Notes under the pieces: model-generated | What the model saw: the letters and a program-made list of their open reading frames with translations, nothing else | What the model was told of the DNA's origin: nothing | Databases searched by the model: none | Sequence record: MH363708 | Source: Escherichia phage C130_2 | Strand: one strand, 5' to 3' | DNA length: 41,775 nucleotides | Position numbers and translations under genes: made by a program | Shown: one piece after another, positions 1,346-34,813 of the stretch | How the letters are laid out: each line of letters begins with the position of its first letter | Position numbering within the stretch: position 1 is the first letter of the stretch

Positions 1346-1551
1346 TCGATTTCGTCGTAAGTGGCGAACAATGCACCGCTCATTTTCTTACTGGCCCAGC
1401 GGCCTTTGCTGAATACCACGGGGATCAGCATGTCGTTGTGTCGGATCTTCCCTCGCTCCGGTGTCTCAAGGTCAACCGTCAGCACCATGCCGCCGCGCAA
1501 TTTGTACTGGTGATAATACTTCTTATCCACAAAATTCACTTTTACACGCAT
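1342..1551 (-). CDS. Hypothetical small protein (69 aa)
   Basis: ATG at 1551 preceded by GGGAGG 9 nt upstream; the longer track ORF 1342-1689 has no better start. Confidence 0.45.
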   Translation of the reverse strand: MRVKVNFVDKKYYHQYKLRGGMVLTVDLETPERGKIRHNDMLIPVVFSKGRWASKKMSGALFATYDEIE

Positions 1552-1618
1552 CAATAAGCCCTCCCGCGTATACGTGAGCACGCAACAAGCAAGTGCGCGC
1601 TCTTCCCCTTCACCATCA

Positions 1619-1870
1619 TCATGACGCTTGCATGAATGCCAGAAGACCGGCAAACGCACTTTGCAGCGATTGCACAACCCCAGCATCAATGCGCCATGCC
1701 AGAACTACTGCGAGAAGCACAAAGCCGGATAGCATGAAAACGATGTGTACCGCATTCCACGCGCCGTACTTCTCAACCCAATACGTGTGCCACTCTTCGA
1801 ACCGGTTAAAGCGCTGTGGTTCGTCTGGTGGCTTCTGGTCACGCTTCGGGAACTGAATCACGTTTGTCAT
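1619..1870 (-). CDS. Small membrane protein (83 aa)
   Basis: ATG at 1870 with GAGGGG RBS; hydrophobic segment FMLSGFVLLAVVLAW. Confidence 0.5.
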   Translation of the reverse strand: MTNVIQFPKRDQKPPDEPQRFNRFEEWHTYWVEKYGAWNAVHIVFMLSGFVLLAVVLAWRIDAGVVQSLQSAFAGLLAFMQAS

Positions 1871-1925
1871 TTTGGTTTTTCCCCTCTGTCTATCCGCAGC
1901 CGCAACCGCAAGCGCTCGCTCAATA

Positions 1926-1943
1926 ACCCCGCAAGGGGTTTTG
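1926..1943. terminator. Hairpin CCCCGCAAGGGG with flanking T-run
   Basis: Perfect 4-bp GC stem with GCAA loop followed by TTTT on the plus strand; lies between the AT-rich region and gene 1619-1870. Confidence 0.35.
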
Positions 1944-1949
1944 ACTGCG

Positions 1950-2115
1950 AGTGATAGCGAGCTTGCGAGCGTTAGCGAGTAATCATACGTAGTATATTTA
2001 TATAGGTTTTTTGATTCTTGATAACTCTTTAACTATCAATGACTTACAATGATTATTATCAGAGGCTTTTTGATTCACGTAAGCCATTGAATTTAAAAGA
2101 GTAATCAGCCGTTTT
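1950..2115. other. Candidate replication origin: four GCGAG direct repeats followed by an AT-rich tract
   Basis: TGCGAG, TAGCGAG, TTGCGAG, TAGCGAG spaced about 9-10 bp apart (1955-1988), then about 120 bp of AT-rich DNA with repeated TTGATTC / ATCAATGA-like words, immediately downstream of the replication-protein gene. Confidence 0.35.
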
Positions 2116-2124
2116 TGCCCTGAA

Positions 2125-3666
2125 TCATTGTTCAGCGAGCGGAGGCATTGAGGCTTGTTTAGCCGTTAGCGTCGTGCCGCCGTTCAACTCGTCAAAGGCT
2201 CGGATATATTGCTTCTCGATCAGGGTGCGGATTGACCGCAGGATGTTTGACCGGTGCGCCCTCAACTTCTCTTCGCAGATCTTCGACAACTCGCTTTGCA
2301 ACGCCTTCCCGCCGCAGTAGTGGATCAGGATATCCAAAACCTTTTGTTCGGCGTTCGTCGGCTTCTGCTTGCCCTCGGCCCGCTCTTTCTTCTTCTCGCC
2401 CTCCAGGTGCGCTTTTAGCTCTTCTGCCAACTGCTCTTCGGTCACGATCTCGCACTGGTTGAAGTAGCCGCCACAATAGGCCGGATCGATAGGCCGCAGA
2501 CCGGCGAGCGGATTCTCTGGGGGGATTGCGTCGGCAAACTCTCGTTCGTACTTCTCACGCTGGGCGCGTTCAAATTCACCCTCGAAGATCGGCATACTGC
2601 GGCGAGTCAGTCGCAGGAGTTGGGCGATCCCCCCACCACGACGCTTGCCCGCAGCCATGATCACTTTTTCGCTGTCGGTCTTGTCCAGGGTCAGCGAAAA
2701 GGTTTTCCACACTGCGCCCTTTGCAGCACCGCCGCCGCGTGATTCAAGCACCAGTGACGCGGATCGCTCGGCTTCCTTCGATACGTGCGGCACAAAGATC
2801 CCGCAAGCACCCAGCGCCGTTGAAAAGCGCTGCCCGCAAAACGTCACATACTGCTGATCGTCGTTGCTGTTTTCGTCAAGGGCTTTGCCGTTGCGCTGGG
2901 CACTGGATAGGTGAAAACTCTTTGAGTCATAAACAACCATGCAGATCCGGCGATCACCTGCAAACTCTCTGATCTCGCTAATCTGACGTGATGCCGTTTC
3001 ACCCCATTTGGGGCGCGGCAGTTTGATGATCTGACCATCGCGCATGACTTCTTTTTGAATGTCCGTAAGGGCTGCGGGCTTATCGTAGATCAGGACGTGA
3101 TCCAGGATGTTAACGCCCCATTCAAGCTGCCATGCGGAAAGGCAGTTGATCACGGTTTCCGCGTCTTCGGTAAAGAATACGCTGATCCCCTTCTTTACGC
3201 GGAAGGCATCAAGAAACGGCCTTCCGGTTGCCACGCACGCTGCCAGCATCGAAAGCAAAGTTGTTTTGCCCACACCTGGCCCCGCGTTAATCTCGTTGAT
3301 CGTCTTCATGTTGAAGAGGTATTCAACAAAGGGCGTTGGCATTTCCGGCTTCGGGTTTTGGATGTACCCACGGATCACCGCTGGCGCTTCCGGTTTTTCC
3401 GGTGCCGGTTGCGGCTGATCCTGCTGCTGATCGTCCTCAACTTCGACGATCCGATCCAGGTGATCTGACAATTCACGATCAGACGGTGGCGGCGCATCAT
3501 GCCCCACGTATTCTGGCGGCAATTCAGGCATGTTGGCATCGTCCAGCACGCCCCAATTGTCCTGCGCTTGCTCGTCCTCTTCCACGTAATGCGGCGGCAC
3601 GTCTTCTGCGTCAATAGGCGCAAACGGGCGCAAATCTTTTTTAGGGTCGAACTTTTCACCAGCCAT
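2125..3666 (-). CDS. Replication protein with RecA-fold P-loop NTPase domain (helicase or initiator-like)
   Basis: 513 aa; acidic and proline-rich N-terminus, Walker A GPGVGKTT, Walker-B-like hydrophobic strand ending in D/E; AAGGAG RBS; adjacent origin-like region. Confidence 0.55.
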   Translation of the reverse strand: MAGEKFDPKKDLRPFAPIDAEDVPPHYVEEDEQAQDNWGVLDDANMPELPPEYVGHDAPPPSDRELSDHLDRIVEVEDDQQQDQPQPAPEKPEAPAVIRGYIQNPKPEMPTPFVEYLFNMKTINEINAGPGVGKTTLLSMLAACVATGRPFLDAFRVKKGISVFFTEDAETVINCLSAWQLEWGVNILDHVLIYDKPAALTDIQKEVMRDGQIIKLPRPKWGETASRQISEIREFAGDRRICMVVYDSKSFHLSSAQRNGKALDENSNDDQQYVTFCGQRFSTALGACGIFVPHVSKEAERSASLVLESRGGGAAKGAVWKTFSLTLDKTDSEKVIMAAGKRRGGGIAQLLRLTRRSMPIFEGEFERAQREKYEREFADAIPPENPLAGLRPIDPAYCGGYFNQCEIVTEEQLAEELKAHLEGEKKKERAEGKQKPTNAEQKVLDILIHYCGGKALQSELSKICEEKLRAHRSNILRSIRTLIEKQYIRAFDELNGGTTLTAKQASMPPLAEQ

Positions 3667-3698
3667 AAAACTTTACTCCTTAATGAATGTGCCCAGCC

Positions 3699-3727
3699 AT
3701 TATGCGCAGGAGTTATCAATAAATCAA
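3699..3727 (-). promoter_or_regulatory. Sigma70-like promoter for the replication-protein gene
   Basis: Minus strand TTGATT, 17 bp, CATAAT, about 30 nt upstream of the RBS AAGGAG and ATG at 3666. Confidence 0.4.
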
Positions 3728-3757
3728 ATCAAAAAATCAATTGATTCTGACAATCAG

Positions 3758-3806
3758 AAATAGCACTTTTTGCTAAAACAGATTAATACAGACCATATAT
3801 AGTTAA
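3758..3806 (+). promoter_or_regulatory. Promoter-like bipartite element (site A) for the plus-strand early block
   Basis: AAATAGCACTTTTTGCTAAAACA (3758-3780), 18-bp spacer, CATATATAGTT containing a TATAGT -10-like hexamer; inverted-repeat centre about 42 bp upstream of the predicted start site. Confidence 0.5.
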
Positions 3807-3836
3807 CCCATCGAAACGAACAACGAGGCAGACAAA

Positions 3837-4004
3837 ATGAACTTTCCAAAAATCACTTACACCGCCAGCCGTAGCAAAAAATTCATCACCATTGAGCACG
3901 CGCCAAAATACGGCGTAAGCACCAAAGTAACGCGCAACGTTACCGGCAAACGTGAAGCGCGTCAGATTGCAAATGAGCTGGGCGGCATCTGCTGGAACTT
4001 CTAA
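3837..4004 (+). CDS. Hypothetical small basic protein (55 aa)
   Basis: ATG at 3837 with GAGG RBS 9 nt upstream; below the track size cut-off, translated manually (MNFPKITYTASRSKKF...ICWNF). Followed by a GGCCCC-TTCG-GGGGCC hairpin. Confidence 0.4.
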   Translation: MNFPKITYTASRSKKFITIEHAPKYGVSTKVTRNVTGKREARQIANELGGICWNF

Positions 4005-4012
4005 CCAACCAC

Positions 4013-4028
4013 GGCCCCTTCGGGGGCC
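4013..4028 (+). other. GC-clamped UUCG-tetraloop hairpin within the operon
   Basis: GGCCCCTTCGGGGGCC; no U-tract follows, so it is more likely an RNA stability or processing element or a weak attenuator than a full terminator. Confidence 0.35.
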
Positions 4029-4049
4029 ATATCAACTGAGGCAAAGACC

Positions 4050-4739
4050 ATGCAAAACAAAAAAGTATTCGTTAAAGAGGATCGCTATCTGGTGATCAAG
4101 CGCGCTGACCTGGAAGCGGCAACCGCTGCGGGGCTGCTGTCAGTTGGTCAGATTGCGATCCTGAATAAGATCCTTTGCGAGTCCAGCCGGATCCGCAGCA
4201 ACCGTGGCGCACGCCCGCTGCACGGCCTGTTTGTTGAAAATGACTGGCCTGAATACGACGCCGTTTTAAAGATGATTGCAGACCGCGTGGAAGGCGTGGA
4301 CGGCGCTGATAAGCAGGGGCCGATCCTTTACTGCATCGTTGACGCTGACGGCTTGCCATTCATGCAGGAATACTGCGTTGATCTGGATGCAGCCGCATTG
4401 CAAAAAGAAGTGGACGCGATGAACGAGCAAGACGGGATCCCCCCAGGTGGTGACGGCTTCCGCGTCGTGCCCCTTGAGGTGTACACCATTTCAGGCGCGC
4501 AACAACGCTGGGCCTGGTCAACGATCTTTGATCGCTTCCTGCGCACATTCCCTGAGCAAATGAACGTGCCCAACCGCAACGCAACCACGATGATTGATGA
4601 TCTGCTGGGTGAGTACGGCGAGATCCGCGATAATGCCCAGGCGGTGATCGACGAACTCGAAGAGGCGGCGAGCCATTCACCGGACGCCCGCCCAGCGATC
4701 AACAACGCGATCAAACTTCTCCGGGGTCTGCACAAATAG
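4050..4739 (+). CDS. Hypothetical early protein (229 aa), acidic
   Basis: Long ORF with GAGG RBS; no recognisable motif. Confidence 0.6.
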   Translation: MQNKKVFVKEDRYLVIKRADLEAATAAGLLSVGQIAILNKILCESSRIRSNRGARPLHGLFVENDWPEYDAVLKMIADRVEGVDGADKQGPILYCIVDADGLPFMQEYCVDLDAAALQKEVDAMNEQDGIPPGGDGFRVVPLEVYTISGAQQRWAWSTIFDRFLRTFPEQMNVPNRNATTMIDDLLGEYGEIRDNAQAVIDELEEAASHSPDARPAINNAIKLLRGLHK

Positions 4740-4780
4740 CACTTTTTGTTAAAACGATGGGATAATTACTATATATACTT
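4736..4780 (+). promoter_or_regulatory. Promoter-like bipartite element (site B)
   Basis: ATAGCACTTTTTGTTAAAAC, 18 bp, TATATATACT (TATACT -10-like), upstream of gene 4812. Confidence 0.5.
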
Positions 4781-5974: not shown

Positions 5975-6673
5975 ATGCGTATCACAAAGGCAATGCAGGA
6001 AACAATTTTCGAAAACATTATTGCAGACAATCACCCGCTGCGCGTCCGTGCCGATAAGGTGCGCTGGAACGTCGCGCGCATGGTGGCAGATCTGGTGCTG
6101 GAAGCCCGCGCAAAAAATGGGTTTAAATCCGACGCGGAGATCGGCGCGTTAATTGAAGAGGTGAAGGATCTTAATAAGCGCGGCAAAGATTTTTTGAATG
6201 TCTCAAACTCGTTTAATAAATTCCGTCTGGAAGGTGAGGGGGAAGAAAAATATTATTACGATTATAACCTTTATTTCACGGTTGGCGGGCAGAAGCGCGA
6301 AGCCTCTTTCCTCGGTGAGTTGGACAAGGATCACCGTCTGCGCGCCGGTATCATAACCCCAGGCGTTGGGCATGAGGTGGCGCGGCCTTACCTGGGCATG
6401 TTCACACCAACCGGACGGATCAACGTTCCTGCGGATCATTGGGTCATGGCGCGCTTGCAGGAGTTGGAAAGCGAAGTTGCAGCCATTAACGGTGAGCACA
6501 TAACGTTAAAAAGCACCGTCTTTGCAACCCTGAATAAATTCACTACGGTTAAAAAGCTGGTGGCACACTGGCCCGAAGTGGAAAAATACATTCCGAAGGA
6601 TCAGCCGGTAACGGGCACCGGCATTGCGATCAGCGTCGCGGATCTTAATGCGATGTGCGGCATTCCAAAGTAA
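5975..6673 (+). CDS. Hypothetical protein (232 aa)
   Basis: ATG at 5975 with AGGAG RBS; followed by an intrinsic terminator. Confidence 0.6.
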   Translation: MRITKAMQETIFENIIADNHPLRVRADKVRWNVARMVADLVLEARAKNGFKSDAEIGALIEEVKDLNKRGKDFLNVSNSFNKFRLEGEGEEKYYYDYNLYFTVGGQKREASFLGELDKDHRLRAGIITPGVGHEVARPYLGMFTPTGRINVPADHWVMARLQELESEVAAINGEHITLKSTVFATLNKFTTVKKLVAHWPEVEKYIPKDQPVTGTGIAISVADLNAMCGIPK

Positions 6674-10660: not shown

Positions 10661-10710
10661 GGGTTAACTATATATGGTCATTATGCCGGATGTTTAGCAA
10701 AAAGTGCTAT
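10661..10710 (-). promoter_or_regulatory. Promoter-like bipartite element (site C)
   Basis: Minus strand ATAGCACTTTTTGCTAAACA, 18 bp, CATATATAGTTAACCC; the 16-mer CATATATAGTTAACCC is identical to that at site A. Confidence 0.5.
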
Positions 10711-10734: not shown

Positions 10735-11529
10735 TTAATATGGCACGTTGGCATTTGAGAGGAAAACGGCTTCGGCAAAGCCTCGCGGCGTCACACTCCT
10801 GATCGCCTTTGTCCTGGCATTCCGGCCCCCTGCGGCGTACCAGCCAGGATTGCAGCGCTTCCCGTTGATCAGCTGTATGGGCACCGGATTTTTTGGAGGC
10901 ATCACGAATGCTTCATTGCACCAAATGCCGGTTTTCTTCGGGTACGCATCGCGCGGCGGGTAGATCGTCGGGTAGATCGGGTGAGCGTCCACCTCTGGCA
11001 GATAGCCGCCATACTCGAACGGGTCGAAGGTGTGATCCGGCCTTCTCCACTGCGTGTTAAGCGTGTTAACTGCCGGATTCTCAAGCATCCACGGGATCTG
11101 CTTGCCGTCGCCGTTCTGCATGTCGCAGTAACCAGCAACCCACATCACCAGCTTTGCCAGCCTGATCGCGTCCTGCTGATCCTGTCGGCGGTTCGGGTAG
11201 TTTGGATGCGGGCGGCGCTCGCTGGTTGGCAAGTGCTTATCATCTGGATGATAGAACCACTTCGCGCCGGTGGTGGTTAGGTACGTGCATTCAGCGAAGC
11301 TGGCGACGAACTCAACGCCAGGGCCAACCATGCTGGCGATCTCCTGCGCTTGATTCACGATATCATGAGCCTTGAACCACATCCCCACGCGAACGATCAG
11401 AGGATTGACCGGATCGCGGTGAATGCCGTCAGGGTGTTTGCCGTCGAATAACCAACATTCATAACCTGCCCCCAACCAGGGGGCGGGCATAATGTCCGAT
11501 TCGTTAAAAAGGAAAATGGCTTTGCGCAT
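10735..11529 (-). CDS. Hypothetical enzyme-like protein (264 aa), function unknown
   Basis: Long ORF coupled to the upstream gene; His/Asp/Cys-rich; contains ENP and a C-terminal PRGFAEAV segment only faintly like C5-methyltransferase motifs. No confident assignment. Confidence 0.5.
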   Translation of the reverse strand: MRKAIFLFNESDIMPAPWLGAGYECWLFDGKHPDGIHRDPVNPLIVRVGMWFKAHDIVNQAQEIASMVGPGVEFVASFAECTYLTTTGAKWFYHPDDKHLPTSERRPHPNYPNRRQDQQDAIRLAKLVMWVAGYCDMQNGDGKQIPWMLENPAVNTLNTQWRRPDHTFDPFEYGGYLPEVDAHPIYPTIYPPRDAYPKKTGIWCNEAFVMPPKNPVPIQLINGKRCNPGWYAAGGRNARTKAIRSVTPRGFAEAVFLSNANVPY

Positions 11530-11968: not shown

Positions 11969-12553
11969 TTAAAGGCGCGCTGGCATTACGGCATATTCAG
12001 CAACGCCGTTGTGCGATTTGATTTCGACAAATGCGGCGGTTGTCGCATCCTGTAAAGTAATTTTTACGATACTTGATTTCATCTGCAATGCCTTGCAAAT
12101 GCGCGTGATTACTGCGAAGTATTCGACGTTGAAGCCGATAACCTTTACACCTTCGCGCTTGCTGTCAACTTCCGTAAACACTCGGCGCAAATCAGGATAA
12201 CGCCCATCAACAAGATCCACGGTGCCCACTGCCACGCGCGCTGCCTTCAAATCAACGTCTTTGAGATCTTCCGGCTTATCGTATGCCAGCGGGAGCCAGT
12301 ACACGATCCCCGCGTCAACGTCGATTGCCGCAGTCTCAATGCCGCGCATGTTCGGCACCTTCGACACTTTCAACAATAAGCCGGTTTCCGGCGCGTTGAT
12401 CAGGTCATGCGTCAGACGAAAGGCGCGGTGCCCGTCCGTTGCCTGGATCTGGTTGCCGATGAAATGCAGGGCGTTAAGGTAATAACGCACATCGTTTTGC
12501 GCCTGGCATAAATGAGCCGCTTTAATGTGCTGCGCTTTTGCAAAAATAATCAT
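11969..12553 (-). CDS. DnaN-like protein: truncated beta sliding clamp homolog (domains II-III only)
   Basis: 194 aa. Blocks NDVRYYLNALHF..ATDGHRAFRL, DLVDGRYPDLRRVF, IGFNVEYF and C-terminal AEYAVMPARL match, as recalled, the E. coli beta-clamp segments QDVRYYLNGMLF..ATDGHRLAV, KLVDGRFPDYRRVLP, IGFNVSYV and AAYVVMPMRL. Has its own AGAGG RBS and ATG, with no domain I upstream. Confidence 0.7.
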   Translation of the reverse strand: MIIFAKAQHIKAAHLCQAQNDVRYYLNALHFIGNQIQATDGHRAFRLTHDLINAPETGLLLKVSKVPNMRGIETAAIDVDAGIVYWLPLAYDKPEDLKDVDLKAARVAVGTVDLVDGRYPDLRRVFTEVDSKREGVKVIGFNVEYFAVITRICKALQMKSSIVKITLQDATTAAFVEIKSHNGVAEYAVMPARL

Positions 12554-12600
12554 AGTCTTTGCCTCTTCTGGTAAAGCCCCATTGCTGGGGCTGTATCGCG

Positions 12601-13329
12601 TTATAAGACGCTTGCGGAAGCGTCCAGCATATCTTGCTTAGTAAGATAATCCGTCTTCACTGGCCCGCGTTTGCGTGGCTTAATCAGGAATAGTGAACTT
12701 GCCTTACTGTTTTTCCGGCCTTCCACTTCGGTTGCCGCATTCACGAATGCTACGCGCCCGTTATGGAATTTTTCTTCGCCTTTGGCGTCGGTGCCGTAAT
12801 AGCCCATGATGTTTACAATCTCGCTGCACGCCTGGATCATGTCATAGAACCATTGCGGCGAGTGGTCATGATTCAGAAGCATAACCGTTGTCACGCCATG
12901 CTGTTTTGCATTTCGTGCTGCTGCTGCAACCCAGGGGATCGGGTCTGCATACGGTGGATTACACCAGACGGTTTCCCCCTCCTTGCCCCATGCCACCTGC
13001 GGATCCAGCGCGTTTTGCTGCTCGTCGATAAACTCAACGCAAAGGGCGTTTCCGGCCTCTGCCGCAACGTCACGCGCGAACGGCCCCCAGCGGTGATCGG
13101 CATAGTTAAACAACCATTTTGGGGTGCGCCATTTCTGCCGGATAGCGTCAGGGGTTTTGCTCTTCGCAAAGCGTCGGCCCGTAATGACCTGATCCACTTC
13201 CTCCGGGGTTGCCGCCAGCGCGCCAGCGCCAGCCGCTTTCAATGCCTCTTCCAGCACCGCTTGCGGGATCGCAAAGTCTGCTGCCACCTGCGCAAGATCA
13301 ACGGTCTTGCTGTCGTTTTCGTCTTTCAT
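12601..13329 (-). CDS. DNA N6-adenine methyltransferase (phage Dam-like)
   Basis: Catalytic motif WCNPPY; ATG at 13329 overlapping the dUTPase stop (TGATG). Confidence 0.8.
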   Translation of the reverse strand: MKDENDSKTVDLAQVAADFAIPQAVLEEALKAAGAGALAATPEEVDQVITGRRFAKSKTPDAIRQKWRTPKWLFNYADHRWGPFARDVAAEAGNALCVEFIDEQQNALDPQVAWGKEGETVWCNPPYADPIPWVAAAARNAKQHGVTTVMLLNHDHSPQWFYDMIQACSEIVNIMGYYGTDAKGEEKFHNGRVAFVNAATEVEGRKNSKASSLFLIKPRKRGPVKTDYLTKQDMLDASASVL

Positions 13330-13781
13330 CACTTCGCCTTTTTATCAGTTGAGCCAAAGCCGTTGGCACCGCGTGCCGTGTCTTTGATCGTTTCCACTTC
13401 CGCGATCTGCCACTGCGGCGCGTCAACGATCATGCCCTGGGCAATAGCCGTGGTTGGGTCAATGGCTGGATATTCGCCGGTAGGGCGATCAGAAACGATT
13501 TTTACTTTCACCTCTCCGGTATAGTCGCTATCGATCACCCCCACGCAATTTGACAAGCGCGCATCCTGCTTGAATCCGTGCCCGCTGCGGCTGTAAATCA
13601 TCAGGGCTTTGCCCTTCGGAATGTCGAATACCAGCCCCGTTGAGAAGATCAGGGCGTTGATTTTTTCGTCGTAACTGCTTTCGATCCCGTAAATGTCGAA
13701 ACATGCTGATCCCTCGGTTGCATATTCTGGCAGACGCGCCAGGGGGTTTAACTTCTTAACGCCTAACACATTTGATCCCAT
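13329..13781 (-). CDS. dut: dUTP diphosphatase (dUTPase)
   Basis: Motifs SRSG, GVIDSDYTGE and C-terminal RGANGFGST characteristic of trimeric dUTPases; GAGG RBS. Confidence 0.85.
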   Translation of the reverse strand: MGSNVLGVKKLNPLARLPEYATEGSACFDIYGIESSYDEKINALIFSTGLVFDIPKGKALMIYSRSGHGFKQDARLSNCVGVIDSDYTGEVKVKIVSDRPTGEYPAIDPTTAIAQGMIVDAPQWQIAEVETIKDTARGANGFGSTDKKAK

Positions 13782-13811
13782 TGTTGGTGCCTCGTTGGTG
13801 AGTGGTGAAAC

Positions 13812-13857
13812 ATACTATATATAAAGACTTTGCAAACGCTTTAGCAATTCGTGCTAT
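13812..13857 (-). promoter_or_regulatory. Promoter-like bipartite element (site D)
   Basis: Minus strand ATAGCACGAATTGCTAAAGC, 18 bp, TATATATAGTATG, upstream of dUTPase. Confidence 0.5.
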
Positions 13858-13939
13858 TCTCTAACTGTCTTTGTTTCCTTCTGCTTTTTTTAGCCAGCCA
13901 GCTAACGCCGCGCCTTCTCCCTTTGGTTGCGGCTTTTTT

Positions 13940-14782
13940 TCAGCTTAACCACGCATTCATTGCCCCTGTGATATCCAGACCGGCGCGCACCCTGCCGCAA
14001 TCCTGGTATAAATAGATCTCGTCCTGATCCAGCGCCACCAATCGCACTTCACGATCACCCCTGTAGCGTGCTGAAACCTCGCGGCAGTTCAGCGGGGTAA
14101 AGCCGATCCATATCTCGCAACCCTTCGCGGGGCCGTCATGCTCTGCCATTGCCACGGCACAAAGGGGATCGCTGATCAGGTAGATTGGCCCGTCTTGCAG
14201 CCCCTTTGCTGGGTGGATCACTGCCACTGCGCCCCAGGTGCGAAGACCTGCCGCAAAGTGTACTGATCGATCAGGGTCTACCCGCGCCAGATTGCAGAAT
14301 TGAAGCGACGCGCCCGACTCGGCAACCTTCCTGCATGGCAGATAGGCTGATCCCTTTCTCCCCCCAGCACGCGCCATGCTCACAACTTTATCGTGCGGGA
14401 TCTCCGCGCTGTTCCTGGTGGTCTTGCTCTTCGATATGGCTTTAGCCTCTCTGGCGACGCTCTCGCGCCGTTCTGGCGTCATGCCCCCCAGCCAATCACC
14501 CAAATCATTGATCGCCTCGTTAAACGGCTGCATACGCGCTTTCATGAACCAATAAAGCCCATCATGCGAGCCGCCGCAGTCGCCGGAACAATACGCGAAA
14601 CCTTCCTCGCGCTTTTGCGGTTTTTTGTGGCCCCAGCGGAAGCGATCAACGCCGCCGCAGATGGGGCAAGATTGGTGGTTGCCGTCAAAGTTTTTGTGCT
14701 GCCAGCCGCACAACTCGATCAACGCCTTTTCCCACTTATCCCGCATTCCTCGCAAAACTGTTTGCTTGTCATGGATTGCCAT
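13940..14782 (-). CDS. Putative DNA primase (zinc-ribbon plus TOPRIM-like)
   Basis: 280 aa; CPICGG...YCSGDCG zinc-binding motif and an acidic LVALDQDE segment; divergent from the helicase gene. Confidence 0.45.
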   Translation of the reverse strand: MAIHDKQTVLRGMRDKWEKALIELCGWQHKNFDGNHQSCPICGGVDRFRWGHKKPQKREEGFAYCSGDCGGSHDGLYWFMKARMQPFNEAINDLGDWLGGMTPERRESVAREAKAISKSKTTRNSAEIPHDKVVSMARAGGRKGSAYLPCRKVAESGASLQFCNLARVDPDRSVHFAAGLRTWGAVAVIHPAKGLQDGPIYLISDPLCAVAMAEHDGPAKGCEIWIGFTPLNCREVSARYRGDREVRLVALDQDEIYLYQDCGRVRAGLDITGAMNAWLS

Positions 14783-14804
14783 TTTTGCCGGTGTCCGTTA
14801 TATT
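14776..14804 (+). promoter_or_regulatory. Sigma70-like promoter for the helicase / recombination operon
   Basis: TTGCCA, 17 bp, TATATT, about 40 nt upstream of ATG 14846 (RBS GGAG). Confidence 0.4.
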
Positions 14805-14845
14805 CATGAATCAGTCAGGTAGAAGAATAACGGAGCAAAAGACAA

Positions 14846-16903
14846 ATGGCAACCGCTGACACGTTAGAAAGCACCTTCGCAGAAAGGTTGATGGAAACGA
14901 TAGAAGACCGGATCGCCCGCACGCCGATTGAAGATCTGATCCGGCAGTTTGGCGATCTGCCGCTGGATCCTTACCCCTATCAGTGGGCCGCTTATGACGC
15001 GGTGGCGCAGTGCATCCGAAAATACCCAGGGCCGGTGATCGTTGAAGCGGCAGTGAGCGCGGGCAAAACGATCATGATCTCCATGCTGGCGCGCCGCATC
15101 ATGCAGTTGCCGTGGGATGATGAAAACCCAGCGAAAAAGCACCGCGCTTGTGTGCTGTCTCGCCAGGCTGAGATCATCGATCAGGATGCGCAGGAATTGT
15201 GGAATTTTCACGTAAACAACTCCATTTTCTGCGCTGGCCTGGGCAACAAAAAATCAACCCATTATCCCATCGTGTGCGGCAGTGAAGGCACGATGGTTAA
15301 CAGTCTGTTTGACAAGCTGGCAGACTTCGCCCCGCTCTTCCTGATCATTGACGAATGCCACCACGTCAACATTGACGATCTGATCGAATCCGAAGAAAGG
15401 ATGGTGCCCGACTACCTCAAAGACGAAAACGGCGCACTTGTTCTGGAAGACGGCGAGCCTGTCCAGATTGGCGAGCACAAAGGCGAGAATTACGAGGAAA
15501 TGATCGCCGCAAAGCGCAACGCTTACACGATCATAATCAGGACTTTGCAGGAGCGGTGCCTTAAGGTTCACGGGTGCCGGTTGCGCGTGATCGGTTACAC
15601 CGGCACCCCTTACCGTGGGGTTGATTCCATCGTCAATGAGGATTACGAAACGCCAGGATTTTGGCGCAAGACGGTGATCCGCATCACGACAAATTACCTG
15701 GTAAAAGTCGGTTCAGTTGTGCCCACTTACTTTGGCGTGTCGTCGCTGGGTTATCAGTTGGATCAGTTCGCCAGCTTCACTGAGTTTGGGGCGAAGGATT
15801 TTAGCAACAACGAAATGATCGCCATGCAGCGGCAGATCCTGAAAGATAAAAAGCTGACCTGGAAGATCATGCAAGAAGTGGTGGAACTCACCAAAGAGCG
15901 CAACGGGGTTTTAGTCACCTGCGCTGGTGTGGCCCACTGCAAAGAGGCCGCAGCGGCCCTGCCGGACGGCATAAGCTATGCGATCATCACGGAAGACACC
16001 GGCCCGAAAAAGCGAATGGAGATCATCGAAGACGCGAAGGCCGGAAAGATAAAATTCATCTTCCAGGTTAACGCCCTTACAACGGGCGTGAATGTGCCCC
16101 TGTGGGATACTTCCGTTATCCTGCGCCGTATTGGGTCACTCACCCTGTTGGTGCAACTGCTGGGCCGTGGGATGCGTATTTTAAAGGATTGGATGATTGA
16201 AGCCGGATTCAAGAAGAGCGATCACCTCGTCCTGGACTATTCGGGCACTATGGCTGCAATGGGCGGGCTGTATGAGGATCCGATCCTTGAAGATTACGTG
16301 TACACCGTGGACAAGGTGAAAGAGGATTGGAAGGAATGCAAATACGGGCACAAAAACGGCAAGCACGCGCGCCGCTGCCGCCACATTCACCCCAACGGCG
16401 AGCGCTGCGATGATTTCTTTGTTTATAAGCTCTGCGAAGACGTCAAAGACCGCAGCACGGGCCGCATCTTGCAGAAGGGCTGCGGGGCCAAAAATGACAC
16501 CGTGGCGCGCCAGTGCCGCTGCTGTGGCAACCTCCTGATCGATCCAAACAAAAACCTATCCGGCGAGCATTACACGGATAAAGATTATTGCGACGTGATC
16601 AGCTTTACGCCGCAGGTTGGCAACGGTGGATCCTTCGCTATTGAGTATCAACTCATGAAGGATGGGATCCAGTTTAAGGCGTGGGAAATTCACTGGCCCA
16701 ACTCCAAAAACCCTGGGGCGAAACAGCTATGGAACCAGTTTTTAAAAGAGCATGTTTTCATGCCGGAGCACCGCGCCACGTTGAAGGCGTGCAAATCTGC
16801 CGAAGCCGTGTTGGCTAACGTATCGTTGATCCTCCCCCCAAAGCGGGTGACGCATCGTAAAATGGGAAGCGGCAAAGATAACGTTTACAAAAAGGTATTT
16901 TGA
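14846..16903 (+). CDS. SF2 DEAD/DEAH-box family helicase with C-terminal zinc-ribbon
   Basis: Walker A AAVSAGKT, Walker B / DEAH-like LIIDECHH, C-terminal Cys clusters (CRHIHPNGERC, CRCCG). Confidence 0.8.
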   Translation: MATADTLESTFAERLMETIEDRIARTPIEDLIRQFGDLPLDPYPYQWAAYDAVAQCIRKYPGPVIVEAAVSAGKTIMISMLARRIMQLPWDDENPAKKHRACVLSRQAEIIDQDAQELWNFHVNNSIFCAGLGNKKSTHYPIVCGSEGTMVNSLFDKLADFAPLFLIIDECHHVNIDDLIESEERMVPDYLKDENGALVLEDGEPVQIGEHKGENYEEMIAAKRNAYTIIIRTLQERCLKVHGCRLRVIGYTGTPYRGVDSIVNEDYETPGFWRKTVIRITTNYLVKVGSVVPTYFGVSSLGYQLDQFASFTEFGAKDFSNNEMIAMQRQILKDKKLTWKIMQEVVELTKERNGVLVTCAGVAHCKEAAAALPDGISYAIITEDTGPKKRMEIIEDAKAGKIKFIFQVNALTTGVNVPLWDTSVILRRIGSLTLLVQLLGRGMRILKDWMIEAGFKKSDHLVLDYSGTMAAMGGLYEDPILEDYVYTVDKVKEDWKECKYGHKNGKHARRCRHIHPNGERCDDFFVYKLCEDVKDRSTGRILQKGCGAKNDTVARQCRCCGNLLIDPNKNLSGEHYTDKDYCDVISFTPQVGNGGSFAIEYQLMKDGIQFKAWEIHWPNSKNPGAKQLWNQFLKEHVFMPEHRATLKACKSAEAVLANVSLILPPKRVTHRKMGSGKDNVYKKVF

Positions 16904-17370
16904 TGAACCGGAAAGAAACAGCGCATTGGATCGAATACTGGACGGAATGGGATGAATCACAATTCCTGCCGTCCGAAGATGCAGACGCGGAAACGTGCTT
17001 CCATTGGGTTACTGAGTTTTTCCCTGATCTGCTGATCTTCCACCCCGTCAACGAGTCTGGCGGGGGCCGGAATCCGCAGTATGAGCAAAAGTTAAACGCA
17101 ATGGGCCGCGTCAAAGGGATCATGGATTATATCTTGCTGGAGCCGTTCGGCCCTTACCCCCACGCGGTGATCGAACTCAAGCGCCGGAACAAGAAGAAAA
17201 GCCGATTGAAGCCGGAGCAAAAAGAGCAACTGGAGCGCGCCCGCAGGAAAGGTGCATTTTGTGCTGTTTGTTGGGGGCCGGATGCTTTCAAGGCTTGCAT
17301 TCATGAATTAATGATGCTTAAATCTGCTCATGTTCACGAAACAATGAAGGGCAAAGACAATGCAGACTGA
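16903..17370 (+). CDS. VRR-NUC domain nuclease
   Basis: TGATG overlap with the helicase stop; PD-(D/E)XK-type motif (IMDYILLEP...AVIELKR) as in VRR-NUC proteins. Confidence 0.55.
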   Translation: MNRKETAHWIEYWTEWDESQFLPSEDADAETCFHWVTEFFPDLLIFHPVNESGGGRNPQYEQKLNAMGRVKGIMDYILLEPFGPYPHAVIELKRRNKKKSRLKPEQKEQLERARRKGAFCAVCWGPDAFKACIHELMMLKSAHVHETMKGKDNAD

Positions 17371-18367
17371 AACCGCACAACCTTACTTGCAGGTGTTTGA
17401 ATCGCACGAATTGAGCAACGAGGAATATCACGCGGAAACCGATCATATTTCGGGATCCTCGCTGCATGAACTTCTGATCCGCAGCCCTGCTGGCTGGCGC
17501 TTCAAAAAGGATAAAGAGGCGAAGGAAAAGGCGAAGGAAAGCACCGGCGCGAAGCAAAAGCCGCTGACGTTCGGCACAACGGGCCATACCTGTATGCTTG
17601 AGCCTGATCGCTTCGATCTGGAATATTACCGGATGCCGGATCCCGACGATTACCCCGACGCGCTCACGTCCGTTGCTGCGGTTACAAAGTGGCTTAAGGA
17701 TAAAGGGATCGCAGGTTACTCTGGGAAGAAAATGCCGGAACTTTACCCGCTGGTTGATATGACCGGCGAAGACGTGATGATCTGGCAACGCCTGTGGGAA
17801 CATCACCAGGGGATCGCCGGTGATCGTGAGCAAGTACCGGCAAAGGATTTTGACCGCGTGTTAATGATGCGTGACGTGCTTTTGCAGAATCAGGACTTTC
17901 ACCGCATTATCACCGAAGGCACGCCGGAACTTTCCATTTTCGCTGAGATCGACGGCGTAAAAGTAAAAGTGCGTCTTGACCGCATCACCGCTGACCGTGA
18001 GATCATCGACTATAAAACCACGCAAAGCGCGGAGCCGGAAAAATTCGGGCGGCTGGCTTTTGACAATGGTTATTATTTGAAAATGGCGTTGCAGCATGAC
18101 GTATTTTCTATCGCATACGGCGCACCAAAAGCCGTGACATTATTAGCGCAGGAGAAAGAAGAGCCATTCCTTGCGGAAGCATTCGAATTGACCGAAGAGC
18201 AATTATTATTGGGCCGCATGATGTACCGCACCGCATTACAGATTTATAAGGCGTGCCGTGATGCTAATAAGTGGCCTTCTTATTCTCGCGGTCAACGTAG
18301 AATTAAACTTCCGACGCCTGGCTATATTCAAGCGCGTTACCCTGAATACTTTAAAGCGGAGAAATAA
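17360..18367 (+). CDS. Putative PD-(D/E)XK exonuclease (recombination exonuclease partner of ERF)
   Basis: 335 aa; GAAGG RBS; motif RLDRITADREIIDYKTTQ; immediately upstream of the ERF gene. Confidence 0.5.
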   Translation: MQTETAQPYLQVFESHELSNEEYHAETDHISGSSLHELLIRSPAGWRFKKDKEAKEKAKESTGAKQKPLTFGTTGHTCMLEPDRFDLEYYRMPDPDDYPDALTSVAAVTKWLKDKGIAGYSGKKMPELYPLVDMTGEDVMIWQRLWEHHQGIAGDREQVPAKDFDRVLMMRDVLLQNQDFHRIITEGTPELSIFAEIDGVKVKVRLDRITADREIIDYKTTQSAEPEKFGRLAFDNGYYLKMALQHDVFSIAYGAPKAVTLLAQEKEEPFLAEAFELTEEQLLLGRMMYRTALQIYKACRDANKWPSYSRGQRRIKLPTPGYIQARYPEYFKAEK

Positions 18368-18369
18368 AG

Positions 18370-19092
18370 ATGGAAAACATCATTCAATTTTCGGAATCAC
18401 ATCAAACATTCATGCGGGCATTTTTTGAAGCCCGTAAGAATATCGGCAAGATTACGAAAAAACGTGAGAATGACCATTTAAAATCTAAATATGCCAACCT
18501 CGCTGACTATTTCGACGCCATTGATTCTGCCATTGAAGATCAAGGCTTAATGGTTATTCAGTCGGCGGGCCGCTTCACCGAAAAAGGCGATTTGCCGATG
18601 GAAACGCGGATCGAGCACGTCGAAAGCGGGGAATTTATGGTTGCCGTGATGGAAATTCACGTTGATAAGAAGACCGCGCAGGGCGACGGATCCGCGCAGT
18701 CTTACGCGAAGCGTTACCACATCGGATCGCTGTTCGGTATCGCTACCAGTGATGATGATGGGCACGGCGCGAAGCGCAAGGCGAAGGATTACATTAAAGA
18801 GTTTGACCTGATCACTGATATTAAAGAATTGAAAGACGAGGCCCGCGCCGCTTATCGCTTGCTGACGGGTCAGGAGACGGAGCAAAACCTTATCACAACT
18901 TACGTGACCAAACGCGAAGCCGAAGCCGCCGTGGCAAATCCTGGGTTTATTCCGGCGAAACCGCCAAAACGTGAAGTGCCACGCAAGCAAAGCGATCTGG
19001 CCCAGCCGCCAGCCGGTGTGGCTGACAACTTGCAAAGCGGCGCACAACCTGCGGATAATGCGGGCGACATTAAACCAACGGAGAGTTTTTAA
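18370..19092 (+). CDS. erf: ERF-family single-strand annealing protein
   Basis: N-terminal KSKYANLADYFDAI...GL pattern typical of ERF recombinases; located next to ssb. Confidence 0.6.
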   Translation: MENIIQFSESHQTFMRAFFEARKNIGKITKKRENDHLKSKYANLADYFDAIDSAIEDQGLMVIQSAGRFTEKGDLPMETRIEHVESGEFMVAVMEIHVDKKTAQGDGSAQSYAKRYHIGSLFGIATSDDDGHGAKRKAKDYIKEFDLITDIKELKDEARAAYRLLTGQETEQNLITTYVTKREAEAAVANPGFIPAKPPKREVPRKQSDLAQPPAGVADNLQSGAQPADNAGDIKPTESF

Positions 19093-19095
19093 CAT

Positions 19096-19623
19096 ATGGC
19101 AACGCGCGGAGTTAACAAAGTAATTATCGTCGGCAACCTGGGGCAAGATCCCGAAGTGCGATATATGCCCAGCGGCGGTGCCGTAGCAAACATCACGGTT
19201 GCCACCTCGGAAAGCTGGAACGATAAGGGCACCGGCGAGAAGAAAGAGCAAACGGAATGGCACCGGATCGTTTTGTTCGGCAAGTTGGCTGAGATCGCCG
19301 GTGAATACCTCAAAAAAGGATCGCAGGTCTACATTGAGGGCAAGTTACAAACTCGCAAGTGGACTGACAAAGACGGCGTGGAGCGCTACACAACGGAAGT
19401 TGTTGTGAGCATGGGCGGCACAATGCAAATGCTCGGCGGGAAGAATGCGCCAGCCAGCCAGACTGCGTGGGGGGATCCTCAACAACCTGGCGGCAATGGG
19501 GCAAATCCTCAACGTGGGGGCCGTGGGGCGTCTAACGGCAATCAGCGCGGCAACCGTCCGGCTAATCAGTCGCAAGGCGCTAACGAGCCTCCTGTTGACT
19601 TTGATGATGATATACCGTTTTAA
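19096..19623 (+). CDS. ssb: Single-stranded DNA-binding protein
   Basis: Near-identity over the OB fold to E. coli SSB as recalled ([28 protein letters not shown]...[12 protein letters not shown]...[13 protein letters not shown]), Gly/Gln-rich linker, acidic tip DFDDDIPF. Confidence 0.95.
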
Positions 19624-20704: not shown

Positions 20705-20733
20705 ATAAGGGGCCATTGCGGCCCCTTTTTTTA
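20705..20733. terminator. Bidirectional intrinsic terminator between the plus-strand block and the tailspike gene
   Basis: A-run, GGGGCCATTGCGGCCCC, T7. Confidence 0.65.
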
Positions 20734-22983
20734 TGTTGGCGTGCGGAACGACACAACTTTTGCCGCTGCAAGCTGGGTGCCAGCCGGTGTGGCGGTCTGG
20801 ATAGCGTGAGCAATATCGATCCTGATCTCACTGGTTGGATCGTTCACGTTGACACGATAAGGCCCGCGCGTGATCCACGTAGAAAGAGGATTGCCCCCTT
20901 CACCGGCACCAGGGATCACAATTCGGCACCCTGGCGAAAGTGGCGTTTTGTAGATCCAGACCATATCACCATTATTGCCACCTAGCGGAAAGTTTGAAGC
21001 AATCGAGAAGGATCCCACGGTGGTTGCCTTGATTTTAAATTCATCAATGGCGGGAATGTACGCGCCGGAGGCGGTCACAACGAAGATCTTTCCGTCATTT
21101 CGAACAACGAGATCCCCCTCCATGAACTCACGCCCCGTGGGGAATGCGTTACCATCCCAAATGCCCGTGGCGTTCATATCAGCCGGTGACGGAATGATAT
21201 AAGTGTGATTCGATGCGGTCATTTTTGCACCGATCCCGCCGTCAATCCCCTGGCGCGGATATGGGCGCGCAAAGACGTTGGATCCTACGCTTTCGATATG
21301 CGAATAGGCGCAGCGTGACCAACCTTGATCGCCGTAGCCGTTCACGTCAGTTGCGTTAACGTTGACCATTCGCAAGATGGTGCGCCCCGTGGCAAGGTAG
21401 CCGTTTGAAGCTGTGCCGCCCGATGAATCATCACCCACGCAATCAAAGATCCGGCAATGAACATTGCTCATGTTCAATTCAGTTGCCACACCGAAAAGCG
21501 AGAATTTCGCCACGTTCACATTTTCAATGTAATACGTGTTAGTTGCCCCTGCCTTCTCGGTGCCGATACCGGCATAAAAGCGCCCTGTTTTACTGTATAC
21601 GTTGCGGATCGCCATATCGTGACAAGGGCCGCGCGCGCCAACGCCAGCATTTGTGCCCCATTCAAGCATAATAACGCGCACATCCTGGGCAAGCGTGCTG
21701 CCGGTAACTACCGGTTCACCGTAAACCCCATCAATGGAGCAACGGCGGGAGCCGTAGAAAAGCACCGTCGCAACCGTCAGGCCGGAACCGTTCGAAACGT
21801 TCTGGTTGGGGTCGCCGTGGATGTTTTCAACAACGGAATCACGAACCATTTCGAAGTGTACGATCTGACGCACTTTGTTTGCGTAAACGTTACGGATCGT
21901 AATGTTTTTGGCAAAGTTTGCGTCAGGTGTATCAATGCCATAAGGGCTTTGACCTGCAACCCCAATCCCAATACCCCAGTTTGACGGCGTGATCGGGGCT
22001 TGGCCTGTTGAGTCGATGTTATCAAGGAAAATGCCGTCAATCAGGCAACCATTATCATAATGGCGCTGTACTACGTTTAACTCGATCCCGTCGCCGCCCA
22101 TATCGTAAAACGACAAATTGCGGTAGACGCCGGACACAACCGTTGATCCCGTGCCTTGCTGGAGGATGCCGTAAAGGCCATTCCGAAACTCGGAATCGCT
22201 GACCTCAATAGTGCTTCCGTCCACTGGCACACCCTGCATCATGATTGATGCAACCTTGCTGGTTGTCGGCTTACCGTCAAACATGCAATCGCGGATCCTT
22301 ACGTCGCCGCCGTAGTGCATGATTCGCAGGTTGTTAATCACTGCACCTTCGATCAGGGTGTCAGTCAGGCGAAAATCTGCGGTGCCCTTCCAGGTTCCCC
22401 CCATGATGGTGATCCCATTCGGGTTGACCGTGCTTTCAAGCGTGCCAGACCAACCATAAGCGTTGACGATCTTCCCGTTCGCTTTGGCGTAGTCAAACAT
22501 TGCCTGAATCGCCTGTGAAACGCTGGTGTACTCTTCGCGGCCCACAAAATCAAACGGCGTCACAAAGCCTTGCAGTTTGGTTTTTAGCGTGCCTTCTGGC
22601 GTGCCCACGTATTCCCAGCCGGTAGACGATCCGATCACCTTCCACATCTGCGCCGCGTCATATTCCAGAAGGTTATCAAAGGAATATTGCAGCACGTCAT
22701 TGCGATCATAAACGTCCATGCTTGATGCGGTCTGCGTCACAAAGCGCCCAACAATCCCGTTATATTCGGGATAGCCGCTCTGGTTGATTTTGATCGGCTG
22801 CGGCACCGGCACCAGCGTTAGATCCTCATTTTCCAGGTACACTTGCACCTGATTTGCCGGATCCTTCGGGTTGGTGTCGGGCTTGCCAATATAGATATCA
22901 CCGCCGCTGATAGGCGCAAACTTGCCAACCTGAATAAACGGGCTGGACGGCATACGCACGGCAGAAAAAACAATATCGCTCAT
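20731..22983 (-). CDS. Tailspike protein (P22-like N-terminal head-binding domain, beta-helix receptor-binding domain)
   Basis: ATG at 22983 with GAGG RBS; N-terminus GDIYIGKPDTNPKDPANQVQVYLENED...PIKINQSG..YNG matches the P22 tailspike head-binding domain as recalled; rest is Gly/Asn/Val-rich, consistent with a parallel beta-helix. Confidence 0.85.
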   Translation of the reverse strand: MSDIVFSAVRMPSSPFIQVGKFAPISGGDIYIGKPDTNPKDPANQVQVYLENEDLTLVPVPQPIKINQSGYPEYNGIVGRFVTQTASSMDVYDRNDVLQYSFDNLLEYDAAQMWKVIGSSTGWEYVGTPEGTLKTKLQGFVTPFDFVGREEYTSVSQAIQAMFDYAKANGKIVNAYGWSGTLESTVNPNGITIMGGTWKGTADFRLTDTLIEGAVINNLRIMHYGGDVRIRDCMFDGKPTTSKVASIMMQGVPVDGSTIEVSDSEFRNGLYGILQQGTGSTVVSGVYRNLSFYDMGGDGIELNVVQRHYDNGCLIDGIFLDNIDSTGQAPITPSNWGIGIGVAGQSPYGIDTPDANFAKNITIRNVYANKVRQIVHFEMVRDSVVENIHGDPNQNVSNGSGLTVATVLFYGSRRCSIDGVYGEPVVTGSTLAQDVRVIMLEWGTNAGVGARGPCHDMAIRNVYSKTGRFYAGIGTEKAGATNTYYIENVNVAKFSLFGVATELNMSNVHCRIFDCVGDDSSGGTASNGYLATGRTILRMVNVNATDVNGYGDQGWSRCAYSHIESVGSNVFARPYPRQGIDGGIGAKMTASNHTYIIPSPADMNATGIWDGNAFPTGREFMEGDLVVRNDGKIFVVTASGAYIPAIDEFKIKATTVGSFSIASNFPLGGNNGDMVWIYKTPLSPGCRIVIPGAGEGGNPLSTWITRGPYRVNVNDPTSEIRIDIAHAIQTATPAGTQLAAAKVVSFRTPT

Positions 22984-23035
22984 TGTTGGTGCCTCGTTGT
23001 TGTATTCAGGCTTTAGTGTATAGACGTTCAGGAAA

Positions 23036-23057
23036 TTAAAAAAGGGGCCGAAGCCCC
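23036..23057 (-). terminator. Intrinsic terminator (UUCG hairpin plus U-run) upstream of tailspike
   Basis: Minus strand GGGGC-TTCG-GCCCC followed by TTTTTTT; the 20-mer is identical to the terminator at 31301-31320. Confidence 0.6.
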
Positions 23058-23062
23058 TTTGG

Positions 23063-34774: not shown

Positions 34775-34813
34775 GCCCGCCGAAGCGGGCTTGTCTTTAG
34801 CAAAAAGTGCTAT
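34775..34813 (-). promoter_or_regulatory. Inverted-repeat motif copy (site E) plus UUCG hairpin at the portal / insert junction
   Basis: Minus strand ATAGCACTTTTTGCTAAAG overlapping the portal stop codon, followed by GCCCGC-TTCG-GCGGGC; no TATATAG element here. Confidence 0.4.

Follow-up and report, generated by a model that had tools for sequence, protein, structure and literature searches.

Does the intergenic region beside the replication gene rep of Escherichia phage C130_2 (sequence record MH363708) act as an origin of replication, and if so, which of its short repeats would the Rep protein read? The window, by which we mean the whole stretch of 41,775 nucleotides analysed here, is a complete viral contig (IMG/VR IMGVR_UViG_2974611538_000001) and corresponds to the complete genome of a Skarpretter-like podovirus with a P22-like structural module. 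The sole paper on the type phage Skarpretter gives genome statistics and taxonomy and holds nothing on replication (PMC7552041), and no origin or initiator has been described in the literature for Skarprettervirus-like podoviruses. The original prediction had seen a typical origin layout at this place, with four GCGAG repeats as the binding sites of the initiator and the neighbouring AT-rich DNA as the unwinding element. We consider it reasonably probable that positions 1894-2124 are the cis-acting replication origin of the adjacent rep gene, with Rep reading TGATT(C) words; origin function itself is something that we infer from the sequence. The layout has held up in so far as an origin-like cis element is tied to rep by linkage, by the weakest duplex of the genome, by an IHF consensus and by a winged helix in the protein. 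In contrast, the parts appear to have been assigned wrongly: the GCGAG repeats lie in a palindrome, stay constant across different Reps and fall outside the cassette exchanged with rep, whereas the TGATTC words track Rep. Probably, then, the TGATT(C) words and not GCGAG are the Rep sites. An iteron-type origin beside its own initiator gene would be the general kind to which the locus belongs, this being the best explanation of its sequence.

The region sits between the stop codon of rep, which is encoded on the minus strand, and the next minus-strand gene (1619-1870), so its location directly 3' of the replication gene was correctly given (coordinates of all features are collected in Table 1). 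The four GCGAG repeats are also present as described, on the plus strand with starts at 1947, 1957, 1965 and 1975, the first copy beginning 3 nt before the predicted boundary at 1950, and they form two tandem 16-nt units, TGCGAGTGATAGCGAG and TGCGAGCGTTAGCGAG. A spacing of about one helical turn had been noted; it fits the window (10, 8 and 10) but is not fixed, relatives having a middle spacing of 6, 7 or 8. Over the whole genome GCGAG shows no enrichment (97 copies seen vs 126 expected), and by the score of Tandem Repeats Finder (TRF) alone the array does not surpass many chance arrays. In none of 1000 first-order Markov genomes did four copies on one strand come together within 33 bp, and on the strength of these simulations, together with the conservation described below, we rejected the reading of the array as a chance cluster.

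Beyond the repeats, the AT-rich DNA proves to be the least stable stretch of 60, 100 and 140 bp in the whole genome by nearest-neighbour energy, followed in second place by the rep promoter region. Its TA tract is the second least stable 15-mer and 30-mer genome-wide, and runs resembling TATATATATA occur three times in the genome vs 0.17 expected, two of them within this tract. The IHF site, a consensus match alone, is one of three such matches in the genome. One perfect DnaA box, TTATCCACA, lies at 1523-1531 inside an open reading frame (ORF), about 400 bp left of the element, and its surroundings are not conserved in the relative L008.

The repeated TTGATTC-like words were likewise recovered. 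TTGATTC occurs exactly twice in the AT-rich tract, at 2011 and 2070, within a 23-nt imperfect direct repeat, and TGATT/AATCA is found seven times in 1841-2140 vs about 0.9 expected. Across 1856-2127 the orientations of these words run - - + + + - -, an order that is suggestive of a two-sided array, yet not a clean one. Neither TTGATTC nor TTTGATTC is enriched genome-wide; it is the local clustering alone that stands out. A second cluster of five words overlaps the rep promoter, at the right border of the cassette, in company with an inverted and a tandem repeat. These two dense TGATT clusters are the only ones in 41.8 kb, no other 150-bp segment having more than three words, and we propose that the rep promoter region is an autoregulatory operator to which Rep would bind.

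Is the element conserved, and with what does it stay linked? Ten Rep homologues with 49-98% identity were found, and contigs were fetched for eight of them. The Skarpretter-like set used here consists of 11 loci, including 'Stutzerimonas phage STP9' (OR754315, locus L001), which is the closest GenBank relative of the window at about 90% identity, Escherichia phage Skarpretter, which is a distant one, and a 98% twin from IMG/VR (L004); a more distant set comprises 4-5 loci. In each of the 15 related loci examined a homologous element adjoins rep, regardless of how rep is oriented and of which gene is the other neighbour. In the 11 Skarpretter-like loci (Rep 49-98% identical) it lies 3' of rep, in a gap of 245-308 bp after the gene, and in the orientation of the window its parts come in a constant series: a GC hairpin (CCC-N4-GGG) with a T run, 3-4 copies of GCGAG, a (TA)n tract followed by GG 13-25 bp beyond GCGAG, and a variable AT-rich part with compensatory inverted repeats. 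The most conserved core in the gap is GCGAG-N1-3-GCGAG-CGT(T)A-GCGAG-T, and the block GCGAGCGT(T)AGCGAGT, invariant or nearly so in 11 relatives, is the most conserved one of the intergenic region. The inverted repeat that contains the IHF site of the window (I1, 2019-2047 / 2079-2107) shows compensatory changes in L008, and 11 of the 15 family elements have a perfect IHF consensus; of the 14 matches found over 91 kb of fetched loci, most fall in the family elements.

The distant relatives (L012 and L080; L078, L079 and L081), whose Reps are only 32-35% identical, carry a recognisably homologous element. Its hairpin stem shows compensatory changes (GACCT/AGGTC vs GCCCT/AGGGC, and CCACCC/GGGTGG vs CCATCC/GGATGG), and the loci share a T/A tract followed by GGG as well as the block WATCAATRACTTAC, the GCGAG-like block being reduced or absent; in all relatives, then, a tract of (TA)n or T/A precedes GG(G). 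The element has the same orientation here with rep inverted, so that it lies 5' of rep in a divergent intergenic region, and its other neighbour is a P22 gp3-like terS gene without a homologue in the window. Since it is kept across both arrangements, adjacency to rep is the invariant, and not a place in a given transcript or adjacency to the packaging genes.

We also scanned IMG/VR with the pattern GCGAG-N1-3-GCGAGCGT-N1-2-GCGAG. It returned 60 stretches, with Rep present only in the window, its 98% twin and Skarpretter. Of the stretches without Rep, 56 are without an AT-rich flank or TA tract as well, and in L016 the flank is AT-rich (62%); having no Rep homologue, the matches outside Rep carriers were taken as chance.

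What Rep would read is indicated by the words that differ between relatives. Taking the over-represented hexamer in each element as the word of its subgroup, we find TGATT(C)/AATCA in subgroups A1 (the window, L006 and L007) and C (L011), both with the recognition helix S/L-IRTL, despite an overall Rep identity of only 49%; in the window's Rep, helix three of the winged helix reads RSNILRSIRTLIE. Subgroup A2 (L008, L013 and STP9) has TGATAAC and the helix SIKRL, and subgroup B (Skarpretter, L009 and L010) has GCACAA and the helix xNAI. ACTGAAT and TTGTCNNA go with two further, distant winged-helix types, D1 (L012 and L080) having ACTGAAT and D2 (L079 and L081) having TTGTC(TTA/GGA). Of the nine loci checked in A1, A2, B and C, eight carry at the rep promoter the word of the downstream element or a close variant of it; L014 shows none. 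In contrast to these words, GCGAG is unchanged across phages with differing Rep recognition helices.

The two kinds of repeat are separated physically when the window is compared with the genomes of L008 and STP9, which elsewhere match it at about 90-100% identity. Identity is about 84-100% in 1551-2000, falls to about 36-96% (mostly below 85%) in 2001-3750, and recovers beyond that, being 94% at 3751-3800 and 94-100% starting from 4051. The drop being confined to about 2001-3750, the AT-rich variable region, rep and the promoter words form one exchanged unit, with the hairpin and the GCGAG array just beyond its border.

These observations bear directly on the earlier assignment, in which the GCGAG repeats are iterons bound by Rep and the whole AT-rich tract is an unwinding element only. 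The array is clearly non-random, is the most conserved intergenic block in 11 loci, lies 13-17 bp from the TA tract and recurs as a reduced copy in the distant L012, all of which speak for Rep-bound iterons. However, the motif is identical across subgroups whose Reps have different recognition helices, it is missing from L078, L079 and L081, where the other parts of the element are retained, it falls beyond the border of the exchanged cassette, and it does not occur at the rep promoter. In addition, its middle spacing varies between 6 and 8 bp, and its first 2-3 copies pair with a left arm that co-varies with them, as expected of a palindrome. We therefore regard GCGAG iterons as quite unlikely.

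What, then, is the GCGAG array? Positions 1901-1978 fold as a long imperfect hairpin (DNA parameters, z = -4.96), in which the left arm, with its CCGCAA repeats and inverted CTCGC, pairs with the first two to three GCGAG copies. The same long fold is obtained in every relative (z -1.9 to -5.8), although the left-arm sequences differ; even the 98% twin L004, whose right side is as in the window, has a different left arm that is yet still complementary. The arms co-vary between subgroups, and when they are swapped between phages the cognate combinations (mean -24.0 kcal/mol) are more stable than the non-cognate ones (-20.6 kcal/mol), a moderate effect with clear subgroup blocks. RNAalifold on a MAFFT alignment of the hairpin region keeps only the central CCC/GGG stem, which is retained in 10-11 of 11 relatives; the extended palindrome is drawn from single-sequence folds and arm-swap energies, which give it moderate support. 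The palindrome (1894-1979) is most likely a family-wide module that borders the origin as a GC-rich clamp, a cruciform or a bidirectional terminator. In any of these roles it would separate the cassette of rep and origin from the leftward operon, and it may bind a conserved partner other than the winged helix of Rep.

A terminator-like hairpin raises the alternative that the element is mainly a transcription boundary or RNA element, that is, a terminator or RNase III-type stem that ends rep transcripts and controls the leftward late operon, with the words being regulatory and the true origin lying elsewhere, for example at 3700-3800 or inside rep. The A-rich and T-rich flanks of the hairpin would suit this role, and so would the extended stem of about 28 pairs, which folds well in every relative, and the leftward gene, which always starts 55-140 bp past the hairpin. 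With a stem of four GC pairs the hairpin of the window is not called as a terminator, and its homologues are called as intrinsic terminators in L012 (both strands) and L078 (minus strand). The rep promoter region, second least stable and furnished with the same words, is a conceivable origin in its own right. However, several observations disagree with a transcriptional role. In 12 of 12 cases the better fold is that of the plus strand, antisense to every neighbouring gene, and not that of the transcribed minus strand, and only the short central stem survives in the RNAalifold consensus. Scans for sigma-70 promoters and terminators gave nothing in 1-2200, the sole nearby find being the rep promoter, and an Rfam scan of 1500-4100 yielded 0 matches at E <= 5. 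The GCGAG-like block and the AT-rich part of the distant relatives have divergent promoters on either side and fall within no consistent transcript.

Furthermore, the regulatory intergenic regions of the phage commonly share another element, which is absent from the origin-like region. This palindromic 17-bp motif, TTAGCAA-N3-GTGCTAT (TAGCA-N5-TGCTA), has eight copies in the genome vs 0.17 expected; the sites checked are all between ORFs, and the motif is probably a phage-wide operator or promoter element. In many relatives one copy stands just left of the origin hairpin, and another is found in the conserved half of the region upstream of rep, which suggests that control of leftward transcription is carried by this motif and not by the origin-like element itself. 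Taken together, these data make a mainly transcriptional element unlikely in our view. As a separate observation, a second TA-rich spot, TATATATAAA, occurs at 13816-13825 (region 13793-13892), downstream of the primase gene and adjoining a copy of the same motif; it is promoter-like and is without a GCGAG or TGATT cluster.

Short repeats together with an IHF site also describe cosB of phage lambda, and the element could accordingly be imagined as a packaging recognition site (pac or cos-like) whose repeats are bound by the small terminase subunit. This resemblance is joined by the position of the element in L012, L078/L079, L080 and L081, immediately upstream of the P22 gp3-like terS, and by the terminal 285-bp duplication of the window, which suggests a permuted, headful-packaged genome. 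However, in the window and in all Skarpretter-like loci the element is about 3.3 kb and some nine genes away from the TerL-adjacent gene, the window lacks any homologue of the distant group's terS even though it shares the element, and the variable words track Rep and not the packaging genes. On the grounds of gene order and of the missing terS homologue we rejected this reading as very improbable.

The same fate met the idea of a small RNA gene, in which a leftward transcript of about 60-70 nt with CUCGC repeats would end at the hairpin and act like lambda oop or a primer RNA. On the minus strand the hairpin does have a U-rich tail, and TATACT at about 2001-1996 could be a -10 element. However, there is no conserved -35/-10 pair across relatives, an alternating (TA)n tract cannot supply both the A at position 2 and the T at position 6 of a -10 hexamer, and the Rfam scan was negative here as well. 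In the absence of a conserved promoter we dismissed this candidate, to which we give hardly any credence.

If the element is the origin of rep, the protein should be able to act on it. Rep belongs to the Pfam family AAA_25 (E = 1.4e-11), and its AlphaFold model consists of a disordered N-terminus, a RecA-like core and a C-terminal winged helix with a predicted local distance difference test (pLDDT) score of 85-90. In Foldseek searches the core matches Rad51/RadA, RSF1010 RepA and DnaB, with 1g8y, 1olo and 1nlf (E = 5e-6 to 3e-5) as the hits for the RepA-like hexameric helicase fold. Taken by itself, the C-terminal domain resembles the DNA-binding winged helices found in MarR, BlaI/MecI, Fur and ORC (TM 0.65-0.74, root-mean-square deviation about 2 Å); the sequence compared with the PDB gives weak winged-helix matches only. 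The helicase domain is 41% identical to the helicase part of Klebsiella phage primase/helicase proteins. Judged by the model, Rep is a replicative-type, RepA/DnaB-like RecA-fold helicase with a DNA-binding domain of its own.

The genome supplies the rest of a replication machinery. Its recombination and replication gene set at 11969-19623 encodes RusA, a primase, a superfamily 2 (SF2) helicase, a RecE-like exonuclease, Erf and SSB, the primase being a gene separate from rep. No DNA polymerase was found among the ORFs of the window searched, and the phage thus depends on the polymerase of the host; with primase, SSB, exonuclease, Erf and RusA present yet no polymerase, it needs origin-specific recruitment of a replisome. 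We picture Rep as a self-loading helicase-initiator. The TGATT(C) words specific to the subgroup, which are spread in both orientations over the AT-rich region, would be bound by its winged helices; IHF would bend the DNA at 2034-2046; the duplex would open at the TA tract (1993-2006) and in the surrounding region of 26% GC; and the helicase ring would assemble on the opened strands, after which the gp4-like primase and SSB of the phage and the host polymerase would take over. The words over the rep promoter (3722-3756) would allow Rep to repress its own gene.

Several points weigh against an origin of this kind at 1894-2124. When the word cluster is set against a control that allows any pentamer, in the window alone, P is only about 0.03. 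The origin could instead be the second cluster at the rep promoter, whose stretch ranks second for low stability, or it could need both clusters. The co-variation of words and recognition helices is partly confounded by linkage, since in the Skarpretter group the variable region abuts the winged-helix end of rep. Part of the conservation may serve transcription, given the terminator-like hairpin and the constant leftward gene. DnaA boxes are not enriched (five near-matches vs 5.3 expected genome-wide), and the plasmid search found no Rep homologue on plasmids, so that a minimal-replicon precedent is missing. Finally, the GC-skew analysis that had been suggested as a check was run and does not locate the origin: skew follows gene orientation, and it is uninformative because its turning point at about 3.5-4.5 kb coincides with the switch in gene orientation.

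The proposed arrangement has its closest counterpart in the pathogenicity islands of Staphylococcus aureus (SaPIs). The SaPI Reps, helicases that load themselves, use a C-terminal winged helix to bind penta- or hexanucleotide iterons; these sit directly downstream of rep, arranged around a centre rich in AT, and run in both orientations. Their specificity differs between elements and matches the C-terminal domain, and binding has been shown (PMC9371898). Like the Rep-ori module of the SaPIs and phage-inducible chromosomal islands (PICIs), the window has a helicase with a C-terminal winged helix and short repeats (5-6 bp) in both orientations 3' of rep with an AT-rich centre, in an order suggestive of the SaPI array yet not a clean two-sided one, and the specificity of the words appears to go with the C-terminal domain, here by co-variation. 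However, SaPI Rep is an SF3/AAA+ protein, whereas the Rep of the window has a RecA-fold AAA_25 core and shares no sequence homology with it, and the phage adds a GC-rich pentamer palindrome, a match to the IHF consensus and, at the rep promoter, a second cluster of words.

The alpha protein of phage P4 combines a primase with an SF3 helicase that has a C-terminal winged helix, and its octamer iterons occur in both orientations in two clusters, ori and crr. A helicase-initiator with a C-terminal winged helix and short words in two separate clusters are features that the window would share. It differs in its separate, gp4-like primase and its RecA-fold helicase, and in that the second cluster overlaps the rep promoter. 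By analogy, the locus is a functional analogue of the SaPI and P4 modules and not a member of their family, the helicase class being different.

The oriV of plasmid RSF1010 (IncQ) contains direct repeats, GC-rich and AT-rich stretches and a large inverted repeat; RepC binds its 20-bp iterons, and the ssiA and ssiB hairpins are read by RepB', a primase of the archaeo-eukaryotic (AEP) type. The window resembles it in the RepA-like helicase fold (1g8y, E = 5e-6) and in the build of the origin, but its DNA-binding domain is fused to the helicase, its primase is of the Zn-ribbon gp4/DnaG type, and no plasmid homologue was found. The origins of lambda and P22, on the other hand, lie inside the initiator gene, and the initiator (O or gp18) is separate from the helicase. 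Reliance on the host polymerase, initiator sites with an AT-rich region and a palindrome, and the P22-like structural genes are points of likeness, whereas the candidate origin of the window is intergenic and would have initiator and helicase in one protein.

A bolder proposal, which we put forward tentatively as possible rather than probable, is that this is the first described origin module for a self-loading RecA-fold (SF4, RepA-like) helicase with its own C-terminal winged helix. It would be a convergent counterpart of the SF3 initiators of SaPIs and P4, with an exchangeable cassette (about 2001-3750) docked on a GCGAG palindrome that is read by another conserved partner, for instance the phage primase or a host factor. 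Were the origin reading true, the replication module of Skarprettervirus-like podoviruses would be defined, and it would be shown that, like the SF3 helicases of SaPIs and P4, a RepA/DnaB-type helicase can have an origin-recognition domain of its own. The natural variants TGATTC, TGATAAC and GCACAA would make a winged-helix recognition code directly testable, and with the two conserved parts separated, partners could be sought individually for the Rep-specific words and for the GCGAG palindrome. Practical use would be modest, namely in annotation and in phage-derived replicons.

Table 1. Features of the origin-like region, of rep with its promoter, and of related genes and sites in the window.
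Feature	Position	Strand	Description
Palindrome, left arm	1894-1926		GC-rich, imperfect; CCGCAA x3.7 (TRF array) and inverted CTCGC at 1915-1919
Central hairpin	1927-1942		CCCC-GCAA-GGGG then TTTT, with AATAA upstream; terminator-like on both strands
GCGAG pentamer array	1946-1979	+	Right arm of palindrome; last two copies outside the stem
AT-rich region	1977-2116		Proposed DNA unwinding element and protein-binding words; 26% GC vs about 55% overall
TA tract	1993-2006		TATATTTATATAGG; most easily melted spot; left border of exchanged cassette
23-nt direct repeat	1995-2017 / 2054-2076		Imperfect
IHF consensus	2034-2046	+	TATCAATGACTTA; in left arm of inverted repeat 2019-2047 / 2079-2107
TGATT(C)/AATCA cluster	1981-2127, plus 1856	1981-, 2012+, 2050+, 2071+, 2103-, 2123-; 1856-	Proposed sites of the Rep winged helix
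rep	2125-3666	-	P-loop protein of 513 aa; N-terminus 1-105 disordered, core about 110-355, winged helix about 438-502
rep promoter	3727-3699	-	TTGATT-17-CATAAT; region 3699-3760, right border of cassette
Second TGATT/AATCA cluster	3722, 3727, 3735, 3742, 3752		Five words overlapping the rep promoter
Inverted repeat	3745-3759		TTCTGACAATCAGAA; at the rep promoter
Tandem repeat	within 3699-3760		ATCAAAAAATCAA x2; overlaps the rep promoter
Primase	13940-14782		gp4-type, Zn-ribbon
SF2 helicase	14846-16903		
TAGCA-N5-TGCTA sites	1329-1345, 10694-10710, 13841-13857, 34797-34813	+	Probable operator or promoter element
TAGCA-N5-TGCTA sites	3760-3776, 4736-4752, 31210-31226, 37099-37115	-	Probable operator or promoter element

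Some further features of the genome deserve mention. The first 285 nt of the window are identical to the last 285 nt (1-285 vs 41491-41775), and this repeat cuts a coding region, of which ORF 101-1222 is represented again by a duplicate fragment at 41591-41749. Rather than a physical terminal repeat, the duplication is most likely an assembly overlap of a circular or permuted genome, whose true length would be 41,490 bp. Encoded at 5975-6673 and 10735-11529 are a nucleotide-modification-associated protein (Nmad5) and a DNA methyltransferase, and the phage DNA may be modified; in relatives, too, Nmad5 adjoins lysis genes.

The P22-like structural module includes the portal, scaffold and major head proteins, ejection proteins and a colanic-acid tailspike. 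STP9 is labelled a Stutzerimonas phage, but its record is flagged UNVERIFIED_ORG; every other phage among the search results with segments in common with the window is listed with an enterobacterial host (Escherichia, Klebsiella, Salmonella or Kosakonia), and the host assignment of STP9 may be wrong. The tailspike of the window (20731-23097) gives a strong match to colanic-acid-degrading proteins (phrog_6117, E = 1.5e-220), which fits an enterobacterial host with a capsule or colanic acid.

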